From a virus (lineage: Duplodnaviria; Heunggongvirae; Uroviricota; Caudoviricetes), in the IMG/VR virus record IMGVR_UViG_2721755662_000003: a stretch of 15,658 bases of DNA. One strand, 5' to 3'. This document shows positions 1 through 15,658 of the stretch, piece by piece. The number at the start of each line of letters is the position of its first letter. The stretch's first letter is position 1. The translations under genes were made by a program, and so were the position numbers. The notes beneath the pieces were generated by a model that did no database searches, was not told the DNA's origin, and saw only the letters and a program-made list of their open reading frames with translations.

Positions 1-1218
1 ATGAACAAACTGAGCGATACCTTGCTAAGGAAACTTCATGGTAAGCCAGCGGAGAAAAACACGTTTTATAGTGATGGCGGAAACCTGAGCGTGAAATATT
101 TAACATCAGGGAAATTGACCTGGTATTTCACATACAGGGCCGGAACGGGAAGGGAGACACGACCCGAACGCATTAAGCTGGGAAGTTATCCTGATCTGAG
201 CCTGAAAGCAGCCAGGGAAAAAGCCGCACAGTGTCGCACATGGCTGGCTGAGGGGAAAAATCCACGTCATGAGATGAATTACACCGTACAGGAAGCGTTA
301 AAGCCCGTAACGGTTGGCGATGCGCTCACCTACTGGCTTGAGTATTACGTAAAGGAAAACCGCGTGGATTATATCGCCCTGAAAAGGCGACTTAATAATC
401 ACGTAATACAGCAGATTGGTGCTATGCCGCTGGATAAATGCGAGCTACGGCACTGGCTGGCCTGTTTTGACCAGGTGGCAAAGCGAACGCCTGTTACTGC
501 CGGATTCGTGCTACAGGCGTGCAAACAGGCGCTTAAGTTCTGCCGTAGGCGGCGCTATGCAATCAGCAACGTTCTGGACGATCTGAACGTTGCGGACGTT
601 GGGAAAAAACCGGATATAAGCGAACGTGTCTTAAGTAACAAAGAACTTGGCGAATTATTGCAGGCACTGGACAAAAAAATATTCTCCCCTTACTACGTCG
701 CGTTAATCCGCCTCCTGATTGTCTTCGGAGCCAGAACGGTAGAACTGAGGTTATCGGAGATCGGGGAGTGGGATTTTACGGAAATGCTATGGACCGTTCC
801 GAAGGAGCACAGCAAAACGAAGGTCGCAATATTCCGGCCCATACCGGAAGCGATCCTGCCGTTCGTCACGCAGCTGGTGGAGCAGAACAGGCACACGGGC
901 TTATTGCTGGGGGAAGTGAAACAGGAGGCCAGCGTATCGCAGTATGGAAGATTAGCGCACAGGAGGCTTAATCACCCTCACTGGTCACTGCATGACATCC
1001 GGCGCACCTTTACAACCATGCTGAACGATTTAGGCGTTGATCCGCATGTCGTGGAGCAGCTTACAGGCCACCAGATGCCAGGAATGCAGCGAGTTTATAA
1101 TCATTCCCGTTATCTGGATGCGAAACGCAATGCGCTGGATATGTGGACGGAGCGGTTAGGGATACTGGCGGGAACACATGAAAACGTAACCACGCTACCC
1201 GTAGCCAGAAGAAAATAA
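1..1218 (+). CDS. int: Tyrosine recombinase, P4-family integrase (405 aa)
   Basis: N-terminal arm-binding-like region (LSDTLLRKL..GKP..YSDGGNLSVKY..WYFTYR..IKLGSYPDLSLKAAREKA) and C-terminal catalytic region with HDIRRTF...GHQ...RVYNHSRY (His/Arg/Tyr pattern of tyrosine recombinases); ORF starts at window position 1. Confidence 0.9.
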   Translation: MNKLSDTLLRKLHGKPAEKNTFYSDGGNLSVKYLTSGKLTWYFTYRAGTGRETRPERIKLGSYPDLSLKAAREKAAQCRTWLAEGKNPRHEMNYTVQEALKPVTVGDALTYWLEYYVKENRVDYIALKRRLNNHVIQQIGAMPLDKCELRHWLACFDQVAKRTPVTAGFVLQACKQALKFCRRRRYAISNVLDDLNVADVGKKPDISERVLSNKELGELLQALDKKIFSPYYVALIRLLIVFGARTVELRLSEIGEWDFTEMLWTVPKEHSKTKVAIFRPIPEAILPFVTQLVEQNRHTGLLLGEVKQEASVSQYGRLAHRRLNHPHWSLHDIRRTFTTMLNDLGVDPHVVEQLTGHQMPGMQRVYNHSRYLDAKRNALDMWTERLGILAGTHENVTTLPVARRK

Positions 1219-1583: not shown

Positions 1584-1772
1584 GTGTTAAGCACTGATCG
1601 GTTTATACGTGAAAAAGAATGCGAAAAACTAACCGGCCTTAGCCGTACGTGTCGCTACCGCCTGGAAAAGGCCGGACAATTCCCATCACGTCGTAAACTT
1701 GGCGGTCGTTCCGTTGGCTGGTCTTTATCCGAGGTTCTGGCCTGGAAGGATAGCTGCAAGGCAGTTCATTAA
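1584..1772 (+). CDS. alpA: AlpA/Vis-family winged-helix regulator/excisionase (about 62 aa from GTG 1584; maximal ORF from ATG 1503)
   Basis: Sequence LSTDRFIREKECEKLTGLSRTCRYRLEKAGQFPSRRKLGGRSVGWSLSEVLAWKD matches the AlpA pattern; RBS aagggggg 5 nt upstream of GTG 1584. Confidence 0.85.
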   Translation: MLSTDRFIREKECEKLTGLSRTCRYRLEKAGQFPSRRKLGGRSVGWSLSEVLAWKDSCKAVH

Positions 1773-1922
1773 TCACGCTGGCGGCACGCAGCCGCCACAC
1801 ATCAATCATCTGAACACAGAGCTATAACCATGAAGATTGAATATACGCCAGAACGTGGGCGGGGATTCGTTCGCCCTGGTGAAACTGAAAAACAACAAAA
1901 TTGGGGTTTTTCAGGTATAAAA

Positions 1923-1950
1923 AAAGCGGCCCCGAAATGGAGCCGCCTTT
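1923..1950. terminator. GC hairpin (GCGGC-loop-GCCGC) with a 7-T run on the minus strand; probable terminator for the minus-strand small genes
   Basis: aaagcggc cccgaaatgga gccgccttt; A-run on + side gives T-run on minus strand. Confidence 0.4.
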
Positions 1951-2041
1951 CTGAACAGATAACCCGCTGCGCCGTTTGTGTGTGTGATCCCAAACATAAG
2001 CACGGGGATGATAGCCGTTATCAGGCTGGTGGGCAATGCAA

Positions 2042-2230
2042 TCAGTCTGGTTCAGTTCGTTGCCATACCTGCAATGAGCGCTTTTCCCTGTACTCTTTAA
2101 GGAATTGCTCAAGGGCAAAAGCACATGGCGCGAATCTTTCTGATTCATGCTCTATCTTTCTGCGCCGTCTTTTCCGTGCCGGTGATAATGTTTTGGTCAA
2201 TTCTTTATCGGTCATTGTGTTGTCCTGCAT
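2042..2230 (-). CDS. Hypothetical small basic protein (62 aa), in frame with and separated by a single TAA from the upstream RHH-like ORF
   Basis: ORF track; ARKRRRRK basic patch; no recognisable family. Confidence 0.35.
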   Translation of the reverse strand: MQDNTMTDKELTKTLSPARKRRRRKIEHESERFAPCAFALEQFLKEYREKRSLQVWQRTEPD

Positions 2231-2272
2231 AGCAATGCGCCGTAATACCTTACACCACGGCGCTGATGGTGA

Positions 2273-2452
2273 TTACTCTGGTTCTTTGGCCTTGCGCCGC
2301 TGGCGATATTCAACTTCTCGTTTTAATGCCGCAGTAACAAATTGCCCCGTACTTTCGCCAGGCATTTTTACCGCCTCAACATTGTTCATAACTTCATGCG
2401 GAACCCTTGCCGCAACGGTTTGTGATTTTGCGTTTACCGCTTTTGTCGCCAT
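2273..2452 (-). CDS. Small ribbon-helix-helix-like DNA-binding protein (59 aa), candidate island repressor; not in the ORF track because it is under 60 aa
   Basis: Hand translation of minus strand: MATKAVNAKSQTVAARVPHEVMNNVEAVKMPGESTGQFVTAALKREVEYRQRRKAKEPE; beta-strand then two helices pattern typical of RHH; SD GAGGGG 7 nt upstream of ATG; divergent from operator-bearing promoter. Confidence 0.5.
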   Translation of the reverse strand: MATKAVNAKSQTVAARVPHEVMNNVEAVKMPGESTGQFVTAALKREVEYRQRRKAKEPE

Positions 2453-2502
2453 GTGGTGTACCCCTCATAAAAAACAAATGCAGTATGCAGGAAAAAAAAT
2501 AA

Positions 2503-2555
2503 GTGTTCAACACTTGACGTGTTTAACACCTGGGTTTAAATTGGTGTTCAACACC
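2503..2555 (+). promoter_or_regulatory. Early promoter (TTGACG -35 at 2514-2519, 17-bp spacer, TAAATT -10 at 2537-2542) overlapped by three operator dyads GTGTTYAACAC
   Basis: Operators at 2503-2513, 2519-2529, 2544-2554, each GTGTT-N-AACAC; they cover the -35, spacer and start region. Confidence 0.55.
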
Positions 2556-2651
2556 TTGTTGGCGCAAGGTGCAGAAACGACGAAACCCGGCAGTGCGCTA
2601 ACACTAACCGGGCTTCTAACCACCAACGATAGCGAAAGTATCGAGGTAGCT

Positions 2652-2855
2652 ATGAGAAATCATACCACACACCCGCAAGGGCGGGACTCGCACAACCTGA
2701 ATAAATACATCTGGCGTTTTATCGCCCTGAGCACGGCACAACCGCGCGTGATTACCATTGAGGCCACCAGCGAACAGGAAGCACGCCAGCAATCTCCGGC
2801 TGGCTGCGTGATGGTATTCGCTGCCCGTATTCGCCAGGGGTCACATCATGCGTAA
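2652..2855 (+). CDS. Small protein (67 aa), possibly Icd-like/Ash-like family seen in P4-type elements; paralog of 3088-3309
   Basis: RBS gaggt 4 nt upstream of ATG 2652; C-terminal region KYIWRFIALS...IEATSEQEARQQ...VFAARIRQG mirrors second copy. Confidence 0.5.
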   Translation: MRNHTTHPQGRDSHNLNKYIWRFIALSTAQPRVITIEATSEQEARQQSPAGCVMVFAARIRQGSHHA

Positions 2856-2859
2856 AAAC

Positions 2860-3140
2860 CGCTTGCAAAAAATTATCACGGGGCTGTATGCTTCCCCCGT
2901 CGCCCACATGGCGACCGGGTTTGACAGCCTGAATACATCTGGCGGACAGCCGCCCACATCCGATAAGCGGTTTTTTTGTGTCCGTAAACCTACCCATACC
3001 CGCATTATGGCGGGGCGTAACGGGGGAGCCTTTGTGCTCGCTGGTTTCCAGATGACCAGTCTGTCAACCCTGTTACGTCTCGCCACCATGTTTGACAGCG
3101 TAGTAGCGAGACTCCTTAAAATTCATCTGGGAGCCTTTCA
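2860..3140 (+). promoter_or_regulatory. Structured leader between the two paralogous small genes: nested stem-loops, repeated GTTTGACAGC and GCCCACAT motifs, terminator-like GCGG+T7
   Basis: GGCTGT(2872)...CCCGTCGCC cacat GGCGACCGGG...ACAGCC(2930); GGCGG acag CCGCC (2932-2945); aagcgg ttttttt (2956-2967); CTGTCAA(3062)/TTGACAG(3092); GTCTCGC(3077)/GCGAGAC(3107). Confidence 0.35.
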
Positions 3141-4562: not shown

Positions 4563-4862
4563 ATGAAACTTAAATATTCTGGCTTAACTGCCAGTGGCAA
4601 CACTCACCCTAAATTTACGCGCGGCGATATTTACCGCGACCAGTACGGCGGCACGGTAATGATTAAGGGCGTGGAAGAACGGCGCGTAACCTACCGCCGT
4701 GAAGGTTACGAATATGATTGCGTGATGCCTGTTTATCAGTTCCGGCGTGATTTTTCTCTGGTACAGACCGCGCCGCATAACGTGTCCACCAGCAACGCCA
4801 GGGCACGGGCAAACATCCAGAAGCTGAAAACCATGATTAACGGATTCAGGGGTAAAAAATGA
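4563..4862 (+). CDS. Hypothetical protein (99 aa) immediately upstream of and overlapping primase start
   Basis: ORF track; stop overlaps primase ATG (ATGA). Confidence 0.5.
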   Translation: MKLKYSGLTASGNTHPKFTRGDIYRDQYGGTVMIKGVEERRVTYRREGYEYDCVMPVYQFRRDFSLVQTAPHNVSTSNARARANIQKLKTMINGFRGKK

Positions 4863-6613
4863 AACTGGCACCGAACGTAAAACAGCAGTCACGCGGCATA
4901 AAACACAAAGAAACAGAAGTCATTATTTTTGCGGGTAGTGATGCCTGGTCACACGCAAAACAATGGCAGGAACATGACGCGCGTATGGCCGGAGATAATG
5001 AGCCTCCTGTGTGGCTTGGGGAGCAGCAGTTATCCGAACTGGATAAGCTGCAAATTGTGCCGGAAGGCAGAAAATCCGTGCGCATATTCAGGGCCGGATA
5101 TCTTGCGCCAGTAATGATAAAGGCGATTGGTCAGAAGCTGGCGGCGGCAGGCGTACAGGATGCAAATTTTTACCCTGATGGTATGCACGGTCAGAAGGTG
5201 GAGAACTGGCGCGAATATCTGGCCCGTGAGCGCCAGAATCTTTCTGATGGTCTGGTCATTGAGCTTCCGGTAAAGCAAAAGGCGCAACTTTCGCAGATGG
5301 CGGACAGTGAGCGCGCGCAGCTGCTTGCCGATCGCTTTGATGGCGTTTGCGTACATCCTGAAAGTGAAATCGTTCACGTATGGCGCGGCGGGGTATGGTG
5401 TCCGGTCAGCACAATGGAACTTAGCCGCGAAATGGTGGCGATCTATTCAGAGCACAGGGCCACTTTCAGCAAGCGCGTAATCAATAACGCCGTGGAAGCG
5501 TTAAAAGTTATTGCCGAACCAATGGGCGAGCCGTCCGGCGATTTGTTGCCGTTCGCCAATGGTGCGCTTGACCTGAAAACGGGGGAATTTTCCCCGCACA
5601 CGCCGGAGAACTGGATCACCACGCACAACGGCATTGAGTACACGCCACCAGCACCAGGGGAGAACATCCGCGATAACGCGCCAAACTTTCATAAATGGCT
5701 TGAGCACGCAGCCGGAAAAGACCCGCGCAAGATGATGCGTATATGTGCCGCGCTGTACATGATTATGGCGAACCGGTACGACTGGCAGATGTTTATTGAG
5801 GCCACCGGAGACGGCGGGAGCGGTAAAAGTACATTCACACACATAGCCAGCCTTCTGGCAGGGAAACAGAACACGGTAAGCGCTGAAATGACATCGCTTG
5901 ATGATGCTGGTGGACGTGCGCAGGTTGTCGGGAGTCGTCTTATCGTCCTGGCTGACCAGCCGAAATATACAGGCGAAGGAACGGGCATCAAGAAAATCAC
6001 GGGCGGTGACCCCGTGGAAATTAACCCGAAATACGAAAAGCGTTTCACGGCGGTAATCAGGGCGGTGGTGCTGGCGACCAACAATAACCCGATGATATTC
6101 ACCGAACGGGCCGGAGGTGTGGCACGTCGTCGCGTGATTTTCCGTTTCGACAATATCGTCAGTGAGGCCGAAAAAGACAGGGAGCTACCGGAAAAGATCG
6201 CGGCTGAAATCCCTGTCATTATCCGCCGATTGCTGGCGAACTTTACCGACCCTGAGAAGGCACGGGCTTTACTACTGGAACAGCGTGACGGTGATGAAGC
6301 TCTGGCAATAAAGCAACAGACGGATCCGGTTATTGAGTTTTGCCAGTTCCTGAATTTTCTGGAGGAAGCACGCGGCCTGATGATGGGCGGCGGTGGCGAT
6401 TCAGTGAAGTACACGACCAGAAACAGCCTTTACCGCGTCTATCTGGCGTTTATGGCGTACGCAGGCAGGAGCAAACCGCTAAACGTAAATGACTTTGGCA
6501 AGGCTATGAAGCCAGCCGCGAAAGTTTACGGACATGAATATATTACGCGGAAAGTTAAGGGAGTAACGCAGACTAACGCAATAACAACAGACGAGTGCGA
6601 CGCGTTTTTATAA
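4859..6613 (+). CDS. Replication protein: P4-family primase C-terminal type (D5_N-like region plus SF3 helicase NTPase), 584 aa
   Basis: Walker A GDGGSGKST, Walker-B-like LIVLADQP, D5_N-like region LPFANGALDLKTGEFSPHTPENWITTHNGIEY; followed directly by iteron ori. Confidence 0.85.
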   Translation: MKLAPNVKQQSRGIKHKETEVIIFAGSDAWSHAKQWQEHDARMAGDNEPPVWLGEQQLSELDKLQIVPEGRKSVRIFRAGYLAPVMIKAIGQKLAAAGVQDANFYPDGMHGQKVENWREYLARERQNLSDGLVIELPVKQKAQLSQMADSERAQLLADRFDGVCVHPESEIVHVWRGGVWCPVSTMELSREMVAIYSEHRATFSKRVINNAVEALKVIAEPMGEPSGDLLPFANGALDLKTGEFSPHTPENWITTHNGIEYTPPAPGENIRDNAPNFHKWLEHAAGKDPRKMMRICAALYMIMANRYDWQMFIEATGDGGSGKSTFTHIASLLAGKQNTVSAEMTSLDDAGGRAQVVGSRLIVLADQPKYTGEGTGIKKITGGDPVEINPKYEKRFTAVIRAVVLATNNNPMIFTERAGGVARRRVIFRFDNIVSEAEKDRELPEKIAAEIPVIIRRLLANFTDPEKARALLLEQRDGDEALAIKQQTDPVIEFCQFLNFLEEARGLMMGGGGDSVKYTTRNSLYRVYLAFMAYAGRSKPLNVNDFGKAMKPAAKVYGHEYITRKVKGVTQTNAITTDECDAFL

Positions 6614-7599: not shown

Positions 7600-7872
7600 A
7601 TGGTACATGACCGCATAGCGGAAGAACTGGAGGCGAAAGGCTTTTACCGGAGAGCGTCGGCGCGATGGGGTGAAGTCATGCAACTGGTGGAGACAGACAA
7701 GGAACGGCATCACATCACGATGCGACGGCTGGAATGTTCCAGGAAGGCACAGAGGCCACCGGAGCCGCCGGATAACTACGGAGACCTGAAAAAGGCGGTC
7801 GATCGCACTTATGCCGAAATGGGTATGGATGGTGCTGGTAATGAAATATGGCGAAATTACCAGGACAGATAA
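7600..7872 (+). CDS. Probable PerC-family transcriptional activator (about 90 aa from ATG 7600)
   Basis: N-terminal MVHDRIAEELEAKGFYRRASARWGEVM matches my recollection of the PerC/Pch motif; SD gaggggtgggga upstream. Confidence 0.5.
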   Translation: MVHDRIAEELEAKGFYRRASARWGEVMQLVETDKERHHITMRRLECSRKAQRPPEPPDNYGDLKKAVDRTYAEMGMDGAGNEIWRNYQDR

Positions 7873-8159: not shown

Positions 8160-9317
8160 ATGCCGAGAATAATCGAATTACGCCAGCAGAAAACCGCCAT
8201 TAAAAATCAGATGCGCGACATGCTGGAGAACGCGGAAAAAGAAAACCGCAGTCTTAACGATGCTGAGGGCGCAAAATTTGACGAATTACGCGCTAAAGCT
8301 GAATCCCTCGATAAAGACATTTCCCGCCTTGAAGCCATTGCAGACGAAGAGCGCAGCAAGCCAGGTAAAAGCAGTCAGACCACTGACCCAGCCGAACTAC
8401 GTCACTACATTCTGACAGGTGAAACCCGCGCATTAAGTACAGGCGTTCCCGCTGATGGTGGTTATACCGTTATCCCCGAACTGAACACCGAAATCATGCG
8501 AATGCTGACGGATGAATCCACCATGCGCCGCATCTGTACCGTGAAGAAAATCAGCAGCAACGAGTTTAAGCAGCTTGTTTCCGCTGGCGGTGCGACCGTT
8601 AACCACGGTGAAGAGGGTAAGGCACGCGAACAGACCAGCACCCCGCAGATTAACGAGGTGAGCATTAAGCTGTATCCGGTCTATGCGTACCCGCGCACCA
8701 CGCAGGAAATCGTGGATTTTTCCGATGTGGACATCCTTTCATGGCTGACGGGCGAGATTGGCGACAACTTCACGGAAACCGAAGAAAGCGATCTGGTTGT
8801 GGGCGACGGTGACAAAAAAGCAAAAGGCTTTTTATCCGTACCCCGTGCAGAGAAGAACGACAAAGAGCGTGATTTTGGTACGTTGCAGGTAATTAAACCT
8901 TCCGAATCTCTGGCGTGGACATCTGCGGACCCGCTGATCGACCTGAAATTTGCATTACGTAAAAAATACCGCAAAAACGCGGTCTGGGTGGTTAACTCCA
9001 CGACGGCGGCAAAACTTCAGAAGGTGAAGAACGCGAACGGTGATTACATCTGGCGCGACCGTTTACAGGCGGGTGATCCTGATACGTTACTGGGCCTTCC
9101 GGTCGAATATCTGGAGTTTATGCCGGATAACGTTATTGCCCTGGGTGACTTCAAACGCGGTTACTACATTGTTGATCACGAAACAGGTGTTCGCACCAGA
9201 CCGGACAACCTCACAGAGCCGGGCTTCATCAAAATTTTCACGCAGAAATATTTAGGCGGTGGCGTGGTGGATTCGAACGCGATCAAGATTCTGGAACTGC
9301 CACAGGACGACGATTAA
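8160..9317 (+). CDS. Major capsid protein, HK97 fold, with N-terminal coiled-coil delta (scaffold) domain; 385 aa
   Basis: N-terminal 100 aa charged/helical (delta-domain-like), remainder typical HK97-family MCP; same length as HK97 gp5; prohead protease gene follows. Confidence 0.9.
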   Translation: MPRIIELRQQKTAIKNQMRDMLENAEKENRSLNDAEGAKFDELRAKAESLDKDISRLEAIADEERSKPGKSSQTTDPAELRHYILTGETRALSTGVPADGGYTVIPELNTEIMRMLTDESTMRRICTVKKISSNEFKQLVSAGGATVNHGEEGKAREQTSTPQINEVSIKLYPVYAYPRTTQEIVDFSDVDILSWLTGEIGDNFTETEESDLVVGDGDKKAKGFLSVPRAEKNDKERDFGTLQVIKPSESLAWTSADPLIDLKFALRKKYRKNAVWVVNSTTAAKLQKVKNANGDYIWRDRLQAGDPDTLLGLPVEYLEFMPDNVIALGDFKRGYYIVDHETGVRTRPDNLTEPGFIKIFTQKYLGGGVVDSNAIKILELPQDDD

Positions 9318-9327
9318 CAGCATACAG

Positions 9328-9356
9328 AAGGGGCTTAAAAGCCCCTTTAGTGTTTT
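9328..9356 (+). terminator. Hairpin AAGGGGC-ttaaaa-GCCCCTT followed by T-rich tract after capsid gene (probably a partial terminator)
   Basis: 7-bp stem read directly; U-tract interrupted (TTTAGTGTTTTAT). Confidence 0.5.
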
Positions 9357-9929
9357 ATGGGTGAAAAAATTATGAAGAGTATGGAAATCCGGTCATCGGA
9401 AATCACTACCAGCGGAGCCGGTACGCTGACGGGCTACGTTGTTCGCTGGGATAAGCTTTCAGAACTGCTATGGGGGGAGTTTTACGAAAAATTCCAGCGG
9501 GGGGCGTTTACTGAGTGGCTTGCGGCGGGTAATGACGTTCGCGGCCTGTATGAGCATGACCACAGCATGTTACTGGGGCGCACCCGTTCCGGCACGCTGA
9601 AACTGGAAGAGGACGAAACAGGGTTACGCTTTGAACTGACCCCACCGGATACCAGTACAGGGCGCGACGTTATCGAACTGGTTAAGCGTGGGGACATCTC
9701 GGGGATGAGCTTTGGCTTTCGCTCCCGTAAGGATGTATGGGATACCACAACAGATCCATGCGTGCGCACCGTGCTGGTGGCGGAACTGTACGAAATTACC
9801 GTTACATCGGTACCGGCTTACCCCGATTCCGGCGTGGAGCTGGCCCGCCGTTCCCTGTATGAGCAGCACCCCGAAAAAATGCCGCGTGCGGATAATCGCC
9901 GCTGGTGGGTGGATTTAGCGGGGGTGTGA
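9357..9929 (+). CDS. Prohead maturation protease, HK97 family (start may be ATG 9372)
   Basis: Motifs YVVRWDK, GLYEHDH, GLRFEL, DISGMSFGF typical of HK97-type prohead proteases; positioned between capsid and portal. Confidence 0.85.
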   Translation: MGEKIMKSMEIRSSEITTSGAGTLTGYVVRWDKLSELLWGEFYEKFQRGAFTEWLAAGNDVRGLYEHDHSMLLGRTRSGTLKLEEDETGLRFELTPPDTSTGRDVIELVKRGDISGMSFGFRSRKDVWDTTTDPCVRTVLVAELYEITVTSVPAYPDSGVELARRSLYEQHPEKMPRADNRRWWVDLAGV

Positions 9930-9930
9930 T

Positions 9931-11142
9931 ATGTGGCCTTTCAGAAGAAAAAAAGAGCAGCGCAGCATGACGCTGGATGAATTTATGGCGCTGGCTGGCA
10001 CATCGAACACGGGGGCGGGTGAGTACGTATCATCGGGGACAGCGGAATCACTGCCCGCCGTCATGAACGCCGTGACGGTCATCTCTGAGGCGGTGGCTAC
10101 CATGCCGTGTTACCTGTACCTGGTACGCAATGAGAAGGGGAAGGAGGCCCGCGAGTGGCTTGATTCTCATCCGGTCGATCACATCCTCAACGAGCGCCCG
10201 AACGCATGGCAAACCCCCTACCAGTTTAAGCGAATGATGATCCGCCACTGCCTGTTAAACGGTAATGCTTATGCGGTGATTCAGTGGGGGCGTGATGGTT
10301 TTCCGGCGGCTTTACATCCTTACCCGCCGCAGTCGGTGAACGTGGAGCAGACAGGCGAACACAACTGGCGCTACTGCATCACTGACGCCTACACCGGAAA
10401 CACCCGCAACTATTTACCGTGGGAAGTACTTCACCTTCGTTACTCCACGGATGACGGCTTTATGGGGCGCTCACCTGTAACCATCTGCCGCGAATCGCTG
10501 GGGCTTGGGCTGGCCCAACAACGCCACGGCGCGAGCGTGATGCGTGATGGCATGATGGCGGCAGGGGTTATCACGTCAGGCGAATGGCTGGACGGCGTGA
10601 AGGGCAAACAGGCATTAGCCGCACTGGAACGCTACAAAGGGGCCAGAAACGCCGGAAAAACGCCCATCCTTGAAGGGGGTATGAGCTATCAGCAGCTGGG
10701 CATGAGTAATCAGGATGCTGAATGGCTGGCCTCCCGTCGCTTCACCATTGAAGACATCGCCCGAATGTTCAACGTCTCGCCGATTTTTTTGCAGGAATAC
10801 AGCAACAGCACCTACAGCAATTTCAGCGAGGCAAGCCGCGCATTTCTCACCATGACGATGCGCCCGTGGCTGGCGAACTTTGAGCAGCAGATAAAAAACG
10901 CCCTGCTGGTGGCCTCGCCTGTACCTGGTATCCGGTATCAGGTGGAGTTTGACAGCGCGGACCTGTTACGGGCCACACCTGGCGAACGCTTTGCCACCTA
11001 TGAGCGCGGCATCAAATCCGGCGTTATGTGTCCGAACGAAGCCCGCGAACGTGAAGGTCTGTCACCGCGTGATGGTGGTGATGAGTTCAGCCAGGCATGG
11101 AAACAGGAAGTAAAAATCAGCGAGGGAGAAAAACCGGAATGA
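9931..11142 (+). CDS. Portal protein, HK97 family (403 aa)
   Basis: Conserved portal segments NGNAYAVIQW, RRFTIEDIARMFNVSPIFL, MRPWLANFEQQI. Confidence 0.9.
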   Translation: MWPFRRKKEQRSMTLDEFMALAGTSNTGAGEYVSSGTAESLPAVMNAVTVISEAVATMPCYLYLVRNEKGKEAREWLDSHPVDHILNERPNAWQTPYQFKRMMIRHCLLNGNAYAVIQWGRDGFPAALHPYPPQSVNVEQTGEHNWRYCITDAYTGNTRNYLPWEVLHLRYSTDDGFMGRSPVTICRESLGLGLAQQRHGASVMRDGMMAAGVITSGEWLDGVKGKQALAALERYKGARNAGKTPILEGGMSYQQLGMSNQDAEWLASRRFTIEDIARMFNVSPIFLQEYSNSTYSNFSEASRAFLTMTMRPWLANFEQQIKNALLVASPVPGIRYQVEFDSADLLRATPGERFATYERGIKSGVMCPNEAREREGLSPRDGGDEFSQAWKQEVKISEGEKPE

Positions 11143-11477
11143 ACATAGGGCGACTGCGTGACAGGATAACGATTCAGACCCTGAAACAGACCAGGGATAT
11201 AACCGGCGAAATACTCGAAACGTGGGAGGACGGTCACACACTCTGGGCAAGCGTGAACATGGTCAGCAGCAAGGAGGCCATTTCATCGGGCGCAGAGCTG
11301 GCGATTGGTACCGTAAGGATCTGGATACGGTACCGGAAGGACATCAACGCCACCAGCCGGATAAAGGTCAGTACGGGGCCGCTGGCGGGGCGTGTACTGA
11401 ATATCATCGGGCAGCCGCTGCCGGATGCCGCCAGGACACGCCTTGAAATTCTTTGTCGTGAGGGCGCGGAAAAATGA
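11139..11477 (+). CDS. Head-tail adaptor / head closure protein (about 112 aa from ATG 11139 overlapping portal stop)
   Basis: MNIGRLRDRITIQ...WASV...IRYRKDI pattern of phage head-tail joining proteins; ATGA overlap with portal stop. Confidence 0.7.
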   Translation: MNIGRLRDRITIQTLKQTRDITGEILETWEDGHTLWASVNMVSSKEAISSGAELAIGTVRIWIRYRKDINATSRIKVSTGPLAGRVLNIIGQPLPDAARTRLEILCREGAEK

Positions 11478-11770
11478 CAGAAGAACTTATCACCCTGGAA
11501 GAAGTGAAACTCCATTGCCGCATCGATGGCGACGATGAAGACCAGTTAATCAGCGGATACATTGCCGCATCGCTTGAGGCGTGCCAGATACACATAGGCA
11601 GGCGCTTTGATGACGGGCTGGAGTTCACGCCAGCCATAAAGATTGGCTGCATGATGTTTATCGCTCACCTGTATGAAAATCGCCAGATTGTCGCGGATAA
11701 CGCAAAAACACGCGTACCCATGACGATAGGCGCACTCTGGACGGCTTACCGTGATGTGGGGGTGTACTGA
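11474..11770 (+). CDS. Head-tail connector protein, gp6-like (98 aa)
   Basis: LITLEEVKLHCRIDGDDEDQLISGYIAAS...YENRQ matches gp6-like connector N-terminal pattern. Confidence 0.7.
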   Translation: MTEELITLEEVKLHCRIDGDDEDQLISGYIAASLEACQIHIGRRFDDGLEFTPAIKIGCMMFIAHLYENRQIVADNAKTRVPMTIGALWTAYRDVGVY

Positions 11771-12210
11771 TGCCGTGGCAACCATTAAGACGATGCACAG
11801 AACCAGGCTGTAACAGGCGCGTTAAATCCGGCAAGTGTGAGGAGCACAGGCGGGCGGCATGGCGTGCAGAGGATGCCAGACGAGGACACCGCCGCGCGCG
11901 TGGATATTCCAGACAGTGGGACAAATACCGCGCCATGTATCTGAGTAAAAACCCGTTATGCGTGCGATGCCTTGAGAAGGGGATATATACGCCCGCCGTG
12001 GTGGTGGATCACATTATCCCGATTAATGGCGGTGATGATGTTCTCTTCTGGCCCGAATGGAACCATCAACCATTGTGCCAGGCGTGTCATAACCAGAAAA
12101 CGAAATGGCTTGATCCGGCAACAAAAAGCAAGCGTGCCGCAGGTGGATTTCGTGAAGAGGAAGAACGGGCCGCTAACCGCAATAACTGGATGTATGACGC
12201 TGATGAATGA
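11770..12210 (+). CDS. HNH endonuclease associated with terminase (146 aa)
   Basis: Cys pairs CxxC...C...C with VDHIIPI and NHQPLCQACHNQKT (HNH motif); sits immediately upstream of TerS as in cos-type HK97-like packaging modules. Confidence 0.85.
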   Translation: MPWQPLRRCTEPGCNRRVKSGKCEEHRRAAWRAEDARRGHRRARGYSRQWDKYRAMYLSKNPLCVRCLEKGIYTPAVVVDHIIPINGGDDVLFWPEWNHQPLCQACHNQKTKWLDPATKSKRAAGGFREEEERAANRNNWMYDADE

Positions 12211-12376
12211 GCGGGAACAAAACCGCCTTATCCGTGGACTTATAAGGCAGCGTGACGCATGGAAGACACAGGAAACAGGGCATAAAGATAAAGCGTCAGG
12301 ACGCGCAGAACGCATCACAGCGAAGCGATTAACCGACCGTGACCGCGAGGTTATGGAATGTTTCCGCAATCGCTGA
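12203..12376 (+). CDS. Possible small highly charged protein (57 aa) between HNH and TerS; low confidence
   Basis: 3' part of track ORF 11972-12376 lying outside HNH; MNEREQNRLIRGLIRQRDAWK...; no clear SD. Confidence 0.25.
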   Translation: MNEREQNRLIRGLIRQRDAWKTQETGHKDKASGRAERITAKRLTDRDREVMECFRNR

Positions 12377-12379
12377 TGA

Positions 12380-12440
12380 GGCTGTATGACGGGGTGGGGG
12401 GCGTTTTCAGGACAAACCCGACCCCGCCGGGCACCGAACG
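12380..12440. other. Candidate cos/packaging site: G-run and C-run rich segment between HNH and terS
   Basis: acggggtggggggcg ... cccgaccccgccgggc; position matches where cos lies in HK97-type phages that use HNH+TerS+TerL. Confidence 0.3.
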
Positions 12441-12498
12441 CCTCCTCAAATTTTTATGCACGGGAATTTTTTGAAAAATAATCTGACGAAAAATAAGC

Positions 12499-12855
12499 AT
12501 GGCAAGACCACCGAAAGCCCCCGCCTACCTGGATGACATCGCCGTGAAGCAGTGGCGGGAAAAATCGCGGCAGCTTGCGGAACGGGGAGACCTGACCCCC
12601 GCCGACTGGAGCAATCTGGAACTGTATTGTGTCAACTACTCCATTTACCGGAAAGCCGTCGCAGACCTTGCGGCGCGCGGGTTCAGCATTGTTAACAGTC
12701 AGGGCGGCGAGAGCAGAAACCCCGCATTAAGCGCGAAATCAGACGCTGAAAGGGTGATGATAAAAATGGCCTCCTTGCTCGGTTTTGACCCGATAAGCCG
12801 CCGTAAAAACCCACCGGAAACAGAAGAAGAGGACGAGCTTGACCGCCTGGAATAA
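12499..12855 (+). CDS. terS: Terminase small subunit, P27-like family (118 aa)
   Basis: WSNLELYCVNYSIYRKA...NPALS...GFDPISR pattern of P27-family TerS; overlaps terL start. Confidence 0.8.
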   Translation: MARPPKAPAYLDDIAVKQWREKSRQLAERGDLTPADWSNLELYCVNYSIYRKAVADLAARGFSIVNSQGGESRNPALSAKSDAERVMIKMASLLGFDPISRRKNPPETEEEDELDRLE

Positions 12856-14500
12856 GTACGCAGAAGACGTAAAAACGGGCAAAATTCCGGCCTGTAAACG
12901 GCTGAAACAGGCCGTTAAACGGTACTTTTCGGACCTTAAAAGCCCCCTTTACACGTTCGATCGTGAGGTTGTGGAGCGGTTTATTGCCTTTTCCAGGGTG
13001 TGCCCGCACGTAAAAGGACCGATGCGTGGCAGACCCATTGAGCTGGAGCCGTGGCAGCAGTTCGCCTTTGCGTGCATCCTCGGCTTTAAGGTTAAGGCCA
13101 CCGGACGGCGCAAATACACGAGCGCCTTTATCGAAGTGCCGCGCAAAAATGCGAAATCCACGACCGCCGCGATTCTGGCTAACTGGTTTCTGATTATGGA
13201 GAACGGTCAGCAGGATATCTACACCGCAGCGGTGAGCCGTGACCAGGCGCGGATCGTCTTTGATGATGCGCGTCAGATGTGCCTTTTATCCCGACCGTTA
13301 CGCAGGCGGGTGAATATTCAGGCGCATAAGGTGATACACCCGAAAAGCAACAGCCTGTTAAAGCCGCTGGCAGCAAAAGCGGCAACCATCGAGGGAACAA
13401 ACCCCAGCCTTTCCATCGTGGACGAATACCACTTGCACCCCGATAACGGCGTTTATTCCGCGCTTGAGCTGGGGATGGGCGCACGTCCCGAAGGGCTGTT
13501 ATTTGCCATTACCACATCAGGCAGCAACGTCGTTTCAGCCTGTAAGCAGCACTATGATTATTGCTGCCAGATCCTGGACGGCGAAGAGGTTAACGATTCA
13601 ATTTTTGTACTGATTTACGAACTGGACGACGAAAACGAGGTTGATGATCCGGCGATGTGGATAAAGGCGAACCCTAATATTGATGTTTCCGTCGATCGTG
13701 AAAAACTGGCCTCAACCATCCAGAAAGCGCGGGGTATTCCGTCGCAGTGGGTGGAGATGATGACAAAGCGATTTAATATCTGGTGCCAGGGGGCTACCCC
13801 GTGGATGGGTAACGGCGCATGGGCTGAGTGTGCCGGAACGTTCACGGAGGAAGATTTACACGGCCAGGAGTGTTACGCGGGGCTGGACTTATCATCAACC
13901 AGCGATATTTCCAGCGTGTGCTATGCCTTTCCGGTCGGTAAAACCATTATGCTGGTTTCCCGTCACTATCTGCCGGAATTTCAGCTACAGAACCCCGCCA
14001 ATAAAAACCGCGCCATCTATCGTCAGTGGGCTAAAGCAGGCTGGATACGCACAACGCCTGGCGACTGCATTGATTACGACCGGATCAGAGATGACATCAT
14101 GCAGGACGCGGAGAAATTTAATATCAGGCTGGTGGGCTTTGATACGTGGAACGCCACGCATCTCAGAACGCAATTACAGGGGGCAGGTTTTGAGGTGGAG
14201 CCGTTCCCGCAAACCTACCTCAGATTCAGTCCGGCGGCGAAATCGTTCGAAGTTTTTGTTAACCGCAGGGTGATTGTGCATCGTGGCGATCCGGTGTTGT
14301 CCTGGTCGATGAGTAACGTCGTGATGCAGAGTGACGCGAACGCCAATATCAAGCCGAACAAGAAAAAATCACCGAACAAGATAGACCCGAGCGTGGCGGC
14401 GCTGATGGCGTTTGGTACATTCCAGGCAGAGCATGAGGATTTTGCTTTTGATATAAGCGACAGCCACCGCCAGAAACTGGAAGAATTTAGCGGGGTGTAA
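12839..14500 (+). CDS. terL: Terminase large subunit (553 aa)
   Basis: N-terminal ATPase region then nuclease region, typical TerL layout; overlaps TerS; size typical. Confidence 0.9.
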   Translation: MTAWNKYAEDVKTGKIPACKRLKQAVKRYFSDLKSPLYTFDREVVERFIAFSRVCPHVKGPMRGRPIELEPWQQFAFACILGFKVKATGRRKYTSAFIEVPRKNAKSTTAAILANWFLIMENGQQDIYTAAVSRDQARIVFDDARQMCLLSRPLRRRVNIQAHKVIHPKSNSLLKPLAAKAATIEGTNPSLSIVDEYHLHPDNGVYSALELGMGARPEGLLFAITTSGSNVVSACKQHYDYCCQILDGEEVNDSIFVLIYELDDENEVDDPAMWIKANPNIDVSVDREKLASTIQKARGIPSQWVEMMTKRFNIWCQGATPWMGNGAWAECAGTFTEEDLHGQECYAGLDLSSTSDISSVCYAFPVGKTIMLVSRHYLPEFQLQNPANKNRAIYRQWAKAGWIRTTPGDCIDYDRIRDDIMQDAEKFNIRLVGFDTWNATHLRTQLQGAGFEVEPFPQTYLRFSPAAKSFEVFVNRRVIVHRGDPVLSWSMSNVVMQSDANANIKPNKKKSPNKIDPSVAALMAFGTFQAEHEDFAFDISDSHRQKLEEFSGV

Positions 14501-14957: not shown

Positions 14958-15313
14958 AAGCGCAAAATTGCGCTTGCTGAATAATCATTATGATTACGCA
15001 GATGATTAAGGAATGACCGAAGGCGGAAATTCGCCTGTGGTTAATGGGGGAGTTGCAGATCTGCAACTCGACCATGAAACTACGGAAACTACCCGTAGTT
15101 TGGGTAGTAAGAGTAACACCCAGATTTTGGGGCTTACTCGTGATACCCAAATTTGGGGTATCAGTGGCAACCATAACGACTTTCGTTACGGTTGATGCTT
15201 TTACCCCATTGGGGGAAAGGTATTACGATAATCATAACACCTACCGAACAGGTAAAGCCCACCAGCCTGATTAACGTTTAACCGGAAAAAAATTCCGGTA
15301 GGTGGGGATCCCC
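14958..15313. promoter_or_regulatory. Non-coding, palindrome-dense right arm
   Basis: AAGCGCAAAATTGCGCTT (14958-14975); TAATCATtATGATTA (14982-14996); perfect 18-bp AGTTGCAGATCTGCAACT (15051-15068); GAAACTAC x2 and 8-bp stem AACTACGG/CCGTAGTT (15076-15100); GATACCCAAATTTGGGGTATC (15142-15162); CCGGAA-aaaaa-TTCCGG (15282-15298); GGGGATCCCC (15304-15313). Confidence 0.4.
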
Positions 15314-15382
15314 ATATCGACATTAACGCCCCTCATGAATTGGTGTGCTTCCCCCTGGAAAGATGATCCGCCTGTATATTTC

Positions 15383-15447
15383 TTGTGTCTATTTGTTCCA
15401 CGTTGTTTCATACAGTGCACCGAACGGTGTAGTCACTGGTGTAGTCA
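15383..15447 (+). repeat. att-proximal direct repeats: TTGTGT/TTGTTC/TTGTTT (15383, 15394, 15403) and GGTGTAGTCA x2 (15426-15435, 15438-15447)
   Basis: Read directly; lies roughly 70-140 bp inside the inferred right junction, where arm-type and Xis-type sites usually sit. Confidence 0.45.
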
Positions 15448-15493
15448 TTTTGCGATTTTTGGCACTTTTTGCGGTGTTAATTATTTAATTAAA

Positions 15494-15658
15494 TCAATGT
15501 GTTATGCGAAATAAGTTATATATAACAGCAATAAATAATGCGAGAATAAACGGCACGATGATCTCGGCGGCAAAACGGATACCGCAGAGAATAATGACCA
15601 GCATTCCCAACATAATGACGATTTTTAGGCCATTGAGCGTGATGATCGGCTTTGCCAT
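15494..15658 (-). pseudogene. tqsA: Truncated 5' fragment of a tqsA (ydgG)-like AI-2 exporter gene: 46 host-like codons then 8 island-derived codons and stop
   Basis: Minus-strand translation [46 protein letters not shown] then YNLFRITH-stop; the first 46 residues match my recollection of the E. coli TqsA N-terminus. Confidence 0.55.

Follow-up and report, generated by a model that had tools for sequence, protein, structure and literature searches.

The attachment sites of Escherichia coli PICIs were described by Fillol-Salom et al. (2018, ISME J), who counted eight sites that are never used by prophages and also reported spontaneous PICI excision. In Table S1 of that paper the islands EcCI042 and EcCIK1516 are listed with the att core ATAACAGCA and with tqsA as the att gene. 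Other entries are ycfD-phoQ (core GGACATATTT), cspD-clpS, lysR-smrA, frmR-thiM, yejM-luxR and yicC-dinD. Capsid-forming PICIs (cf-PICIs) are the subject of the preprint of Alqurainy et al. (10.1101/2022.09.08.507074) and of de Sousa et al. (2023). The preprint gives 10-15 kb as a search criterion for cf-PICIs and states that, of the six attB sites that they use in E. coli, classical PICIs share four.

Integration into tqsA has been noted in other work as well. Bobay et al. (2013) found tqsA among the core genes disrupted by integration, and Mageeney et al. (2020, NAR) listed it as a candidate for "regulated gene integrity", with the islands Eco282.16.tqsA, Eco557.15.tqsA and Eco33.11.tqsA. Flockhart et al. 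(2012) noted that strain ED1a has an OI-51 relative in the interval from ydgD to ydgG (tqsA), and characterised the island-borne 99-aa regulator RgdR. The insertion in tqsA, its site and its 9-bp core are already published. What might be added here is a capsid-forming PICI that occupies the tqsA site, and this is itself implied by the cf-PICI paper on shared attB sites.

The DNA examined here, referred to as the window, is the whole stretch of 15,658 nt that was analysed. Its edge is, with very little doubt, the integrase-distal junction (attR) of a 15.7-kb cf-PICI that splits tqsA at a 9-bp core. The features on which this reading is based are collected in Table 1.

Table 1. Features of the window, with the basis on which each was assigned
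Feature	Position	Strand	Basis
Tyrosine integrase	1..1218	+	Pfam Arm-DNA-bind_3, Phage_integrase, weak Phage_int_M
AlpA-type excisionase/regulator	1584..1772	+	PHROG 2790 and 66 "excisionase and transcriptional regulator"; Pfam Phage_AlpA in homologous islands
Primase-replicase	4859..6613	+	Pfam D5_N, DUF5906, Pox_D5
Capsid/packaging module: major capsid protein, prohead protease, portal, head closure, head-tail adaptor, HNH, TerS, TerL	8160..14500	+	Pfam, PHROG, PGAP
76-nt direct repeat at both island ends, 76% identity, including the arm repeats	15376..15451	+	Repeat search, spacing 15,484 nt
Tandem GGTGTAGTCA repeats, candidate arm-type Int binding sites (P' arm)	15426..15447	+	Same pair next to int at L001 35697-35720; binding role inferred
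Tail of the truncated ORF (YNLFRITH + stop), also the core-proximal attP part specific to tqsA-type islands	15494..15521	-	Translation; divergence from phoQ-type islands
9-bp att core ATAACAGCA, attR copy (TGCTGTTAT in tqsA orientation, tqsA nt 129-137)	15522..15530	+	FORC_069 junctions compared with the empty site of strain 8A
Host tqsA 5' fragment, nt 1-137, residues 1-46	15522..15658	-	Identity to annotated tqsA; native upstream region beyond the window edge

The island and its junctions with tqsA

The window is the reverse complement of part of the E. coli FORC_069 chromosome (NZ_CP023061; locus L001, 20001-35658), with 0 mismatches over 15,658 nt. The order there is ydgD, mdtI, mdtJ and ydgV, the tqsA 5' piece, the 15.7-kb island with its integrase last, a 906-nt tqsA 3' piece, and then pntB and pntA. 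The 3' piece comprises codons 44-344 and lies about 190 bp beyond window position 1. PGAP lists both pieces as partial pseudogenes, the first missing its C-terminus and the second its N-terminus. In strain 8A (locus L002) the site is empty, and an unbroken 1,035-nt tqsA lies between ydgV and pntB. A preliminary description, made from the letters of the window, had placed the island inside the 5' coding region of tqsA. The FORC_069 locus confirms this, with an integrase-bearing island between the two tqsA pieces and the 3' part of the gene adjoining the integrase side, where matching host sequence had been anticipated. An intact tqsA elsewhere would have spoken against the idea; FORC_069 matches the 5' part of tqsA at a single place and therefore has no second copy. 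About 10 kb from this locus, L001 1-9700 holds a lambdoid/Rac-like prophage (kil, recE, bet, exo, intD). It abuts a truncated ynfG (missing its N-terminus according to PGAP), a second gene-interrupting integration nearby.

At the window edge, the minus-strand ORF at 15494-15658 translates as 46 native TqsA residues followed by eight island-encoded codons (YNLFRITH) and a stop. A megablast search with window 15300-15658 gave matches in 5,423 of 5,426 complete E. coli genomes. In most of the 5,423, the 137 nt from 15658 to 15522 are 99-100% identical to a gene annotated as "tqsA: AI-2 transporter TqsA", and the match ends at nt 137. Translation and search together bear out the earlier account of this ORF as TqsA-derived with a foreign end. 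Codon 46 is ATT in tqsA and ATA at the window junction, encoding Ile in both. Junction comparison assigns the sequence from 15521 leftwards to the island and 15522-15530 to the tqsA-derived core; the first placement of the junction, near 15515-15523, was right in region and a few bases off. Homology of the window end to islands of the phoQ type (those at the roxA(ycfD)-phoQ site) stops at about 15503; beyond it, next to the core, the two att types have different sequences. A chance match to tqsA was ruled out by the host flank (ydgV, mdtJI, ydgD), which continues past the window edge in FORC_069. An assembly artefact was likewise rejected, because the island end and the tqsA 5' fragment are joined in 243 complete genomes.

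The three sequences needed to define the core can be lined up directly. With the core in brackets, attB of strain 8A reads ...TTATTTAT[TGCTGTTAT]TCTTAACCC..., the 5'-fragment/island junction ...TTATTTAT[TGCTGTTAT]ATATAACTT..., and the island/3'-fragment junction ...TGATAAAA[TGCTGTTAT]TCTTAACCC.... The match to tqsA extends through nt 137 in the 5' piece and begins at nt 129 in the 3' piece, an overlap that sets the duplicated core at 9 bp. ATAACAGCA occurs once within the window, the other (attL) copy lying about 190 bp to the left of position 1, and the empty site has a single copy. This comparison of attB, attL and attR supplies the duplicated att core that the preliminary description had suggested looking for, one copy per island end. 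An 8-bp core, GCTGTTAT, derived from PGAP fragment coordinates, was dropped, as the colinear comparison and the published table both give 9 bp. With ATAACAGCA at both ends and inside tqsA, the island falls in the tqsA att group of E. coli PICIs (cf. Fillol-Salom 2018, Table S1), and the cores and contexts derived independently here agree with that table. The second copy of the 76-nt block is at L001 35692-35767. The tandem GGTGTAGTCA repeats within the block are putative arm-type Int binding sites, in place of which phoQ-type islands have GGTGTAGTTAAT.

By Pfam, PHROG and PGAP names, all 11 core components of a cf-PICI in the definition of de Sousa (2023) are present: int, alpA and the primase are at the left end, and the island has head and packaging genes of its own. 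The latter were recognised from Pfam Phage_capsid (HK97-type), Peptidase_S78, Phage_portal, Terminase_4, TerL_ATPase and TerL_nuclease, and from PHROG 25 (head closure), 40 (adaptor) and 144 (HNH). Family searches and PGAP add Icd-like genes, a DUF4222 protein, an SSB and PerC. Among the 26 PGAP island genes, several of them small ORFs without assigned function, neither annotation nor family matches identified tail, holin or lysis genes. At 15.7 kb between the cores, the island is marginally larger than the stated cf-PICI range of 10-15 kb. Induction by a helper phage, with packaging into the island's own capsids fitted with helper tails, belongs to the cf-PICI definition and is a putative trait of this island.

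Several details of the gene map can be added. The window starts at an internal ATG (Met5) of the integrase (window 1-12); the PGAP start is a GTG 12 nt upstream, outside the window. In the Icd-like region, Rfam detected a C4 antisense RNA (RF01695, 72.6 bits) and an a1/b1 target element (RF03163, 46.8 bits) at window 2886-2935 and 3003-3090 (+), a P1/P4-type antisense-RNA immunity cassette on a satellite. An uninterrupted 341-aa ORF at window 1830-2855 (+), whose C-terminal part matches PHROG "transcriptional repressor" and Icd-like families, is divided in the PGAP annotation between a partial Icd-like pseudogene and a small gene. The 99-aa DUF4222 protein (window 4563-4862, +) corresponds to RgdR, and a 90-aa PerC-like protein is encoded at 7600-7872 (+). 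In the literature, RgdR and PerC-like proteins encoded on islands are described as activating the LEE type III secretion system (Flockhart et al. 2012; Fillol-Salom 2018).

Recurrence of the site and relatives of the integrase

A 201-nt probe across the empty tqsA site was compared with 5,423 complete E. coli genomes, the site being taken as intact where at least 80% of the probe was covered. This was so in 5,171 of the 5,423 genomes, which leaves 252 (about 4.6%) with a split site. The right end of the island is joined to the tqsA 5' fragment in 243 of the 252, and at least 80% of the whole island is present in 133 of the split-site genomes. In a sizeable set of complete genomes the AI-2 exporter gene is in this way divided at a single, fixed 9-bp site, the dividing elements being satellites of the PICI or cf-PICI type. 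For annotation this means that the tqsA pseudogene pieces do not reflect decay of the gene but represent one half each of a satellite attachment site, and that the tqsA att site gives the exact limits of the island. In a few genomes tqsA is broken elsewhere, e.g., where the match stops at nt 83 or nt 119 of the gene, and strain 2 HS-C has about 208 extra bp within the probed stretch; unrelated IS insertions or indels seem to be the cause.

Six occupied loci were sampled: FORC_069, strains 10153, EH41, 2015C-3121 and O111:H11 88.0502, and one GenBank draft assembly. Their integrases (94-100% DNA identity) all adjoin the 906-nt tqsA remnant with an identical junction, and the genes downstream of alpA differ. 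Since cargo varies and the junction does not, the int-attP module has been used repeatedly at the exact nucleotide by different satellites. Several elements of a tight integrase clade at one break position, one of the marks of regulated gene integrity, are therefore seen in these six loci. The remnant is a partial pseudogene in the PGAP annotation of every genome examined.

The integrase is P4-like (CP4-57-type), with PF13356 (Arm-DNA-bind_3, DUF4102) at 67.2 bits and PF00589 at 60.2 bits, and homologues at 55% identity carry the source name "Prophage CP4-57 integrase". NCBIfam gave sub-threshold generic integrase matches only. Phage P4 integrase is absent among the best 25 matches in the phage collection, the best of which is 50% identical. 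Among the closest there is the 49.9% identical integrase of LR881103.1 ("Escherichia phage vB_KppS-Ant", an induced prophage, 16,548 bp), which may be a satellite deposited as a phage. A search of genome contigs with the integrase gave one locus, a Shigella flexneri phoQ-type island.

ARAGORN found no tRNA beside any related integrase examined, nor within the window or the FORC_069 locus, and a tRNA target was ruled out on these grounds. The preliminary description had called the site a non-tRNA one and, for a P4-family integrase, an unusual one. The first half stands; the second does not, since the close relatives examined are all at non-tRNA sites. An integrase with 91% amino acid identity, found in O157:H7 and Shigella, lies between roxA(ycfD) and phoQ with core GGACATATTT; relatives at 84, 75 and 68% are at abgR(lysR)-smrA, cspD-clpS and rcnR(frmR)-thiM, with no tRNA nearby. 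Each of these has been published as an att site of E. coli PICIs, with tqsA on the same list (Fillol-Salom 2018, Table S1).

The integrase-proximal attP arms of the tqsA type and its relatives are homologous up to a conserved ATTTTATCAnTTAGTG motif, and the core is the exact point of their divergence. A set of 29 fixed amino acid differences separates tqsA-type from phoQ-type integrases; 18 fall within the first 58 residues and 0 after residue 248, so that the two differ mainly in the N-terminal arm-binding domain. This N-terminal change parallels a change of arm repeat, GTGACTACACC in the tqsA type vs TTAACTACACC in the phoQ type, and the attP cores are different as well. The two integrases (residues 1-248, window 1-732; L003 16986-18215) form a natural pair for mapping the determinants of target specificity.

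Effect of the insertion on TqsA

On intact TqsA the Pfam family AI-2E_transport covers residues 14-328 (268.8 bits). The 54-aa product of the 5' piece retains profile positions 2-36 only, at 14.3 bits and below threshold, and the remnant matches from profile position 32 onwards (positions 32-326, 244.6 bits). Positions 2-36 are in this way split from 32-326, a conserved domain that is disrupted and unrestored, as is looked for in regulated gene integrity. In the solved structure (PDB 7NB6; TqsA structure paper) H1 spans residues 7-29 and H2 residues 31-57; H2 (Ala31-Trp57) is a horizontal membrane-embedded helix, and H1 is the main protomer contact in the pentamer. The insertion cuts H2 after residue 46 and severs H1 from the rest of TqsA. 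Because H1 and half of H2 are removed, a loss of TqsA function in carriers is strongly inferred. The first in-frame starts in the remnant are GTG51 and ATG54, and a truncated TqsA product beginning at either is possible. The effect on quorum-signal export and biofilm proposed at the outset is plausible and remains putative.

The integrated state is best explained by a simple exchange. The tyrosine integrase of the island recombined attP with the 9-bp core ATAACAGCA in tqsA codons 43-46, leaving a copy of the core at each end. The 5' piece keeps the native promoter and encodes residues 1-46 with the eight island-encoded residues, and the 3' piece, codons 44-344, is left without promoter or start codon of its own. 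As attP brings no replacement 5' end, tqsA is interrupted for as long as the island is integrated. Precise excision mediated by Int and AlpA would rebuild the gene, and intact int, intact alpA and identical cores suggest that the island can still excise.

Restoration of the gene at the other side of the island had been named as the one escape from truncation. Such an innocuous integration, in which attP would provide a substitute 5' end, promoter or start and so allow functional TqsA to be made from the int-side junction, is very improbable, although a gene-restoring attP is usual for elements that target protein-coding genes (Mageeney 2020). The int-side junction, read in the tqsA frame, is ...KNTK-TGA-TAA-AAT-GCT GTT ATT... 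(K N T K TGA TAA N A V I L N P L V Q H M). A 60-aa hypothetical ORF of the island (L001 35658-35840, +; outside window position 1, overlapping the int start on the opposite strand) does leave the int end in the frame of the remnant, but it is closed by the tandem stops TGA TAA, which leave a single codon between ORF and core and are present in all sampled islands. As a fusion partner for TqsA it was ruled out by these stops, which lie in sequence conserved even in phoQ-type islands. It is probably a chance ORF, because the stops fall in a motif, CACTAAnTGATAAAAT, that is conserved in islands with other att sites. The island side of the junction has no similarity to TqsA residues 1-43, and a consensus scan found no sigma-70-like promoter facing the remnant, which does not prove its absence. 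The int-side junction restores nothing, no replacement gene end is supplied by attP, and the truncation foreseen in the preliminary description holds. The remnant has no internal stops or frameshifts in 6/6 sampled loci, a point that would suit a functional product, but it is a pseudogene to PGAP throughout and the missing H1 is the main pentamer contact.

The undecayed remnant also bears on a reversible switch, in which spontaneous or helper-induced excision would restore tqsA in some cells and be selected through AI-2 signalling. The idea is not new, since reversal by excision was already proposed for tqsA by Mageeney et al. (2020), and little new biology is added to it here; as an account of this locus it looks improbable. 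tqsA is among their candidates (tight integrase clade, several independent elements, same break position), identical cores would permit exact restoration, and E. coli PICIs do excise spontaneously (Fillol-Salom 2018). Against this, sister integrases use intergenic sites, so that tqsA may be merely a tolerated landing site; the three paralogous AI-2E proteins of E. coli could buffer a loss (TqsA structure paper); and helper-induced excision would take place in cells about to lyse, which would gain nothing from a restored gene. Residues 44-344 of the remnant are unchanged in 5/6 sampled loci, FORC_069 having R178C, and this fits recent insertion and retained gene value equally and does not discriminate between them. 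The intact remnant and the exact 9-bp cores permit a switch; neither demonstrates it. It is unlikely that tqsA is more than a tolerated landing site in this respect. That AI-2 export would be restored by excision in a selected subpopulation, or that integration would deliberately raise intracellular AI-2, is decidedly improbable; if true, this would tie quorum signalling, along with biofilm behaviour, to the life cycle of satellite and helper phage. Scarcely credible is an off-target event, with tqsA a secondary site of an integrase whose real target lies elsewhere, e.g., at roxA-phoQ. A 91%-identical integrase does use that site with core GGACATATTT, and many within-gene sites have been suggested to be secondary (Bobay 2013), but tqsA-type integrases form a group of their own, with 29 fixed differences, a matching attP core and different arm repeats. 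Every sampled int of at least 94% DNA identity is at tqsA, at the same nucleotide, and the same island end is joined to the tqsA 5' fragment in 243 genomes.

Comparison with described satellites

The reading preferred here, a cf-PICI integrated at its own att site within tqsA, can be set beside four groups of described elements. EcCI042 and EcCIK1516, compared by description, share with this island tqsA, the core ATAACAGCA, the accessory genes rdgR and perC, and an int at the left end followed by alpA. They are 11-kb classical PICIs without capsid, portal or TerL of their own, whereas this island is 15.7 kb and has the full head and packaging module. The TIGER islands of Mageeney (2020) are likewise 11-16 kb elements in E. 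coli tqsA, with the UPF0118/AI-2E Pfam domain disrupted and unrestored; they were not classed as satellites there.

Islands of the OI-51 / CP-933C / EcCICFT073 type at ycfD(roxA)-phoQ resemble this one in integrase (91%), homologous attP arms, alpA, rdgR, perC and ssb. They differ in their core (GGACATATTT), an intergenic target, other arm repeats and the 29 fixed differences of the integrase. The fourth element is EcCIEDL933, the prototype cf-PICI. As set out in the Alqurainy preprint and by de Sousa et al. (2023), it has the same gene set in the same order (int, alpA, primase, capsid, protease, portal, adaptor, connector, HNH, TerS and TerL), and on that description it shares with this island a lack of tail and lysis genes.
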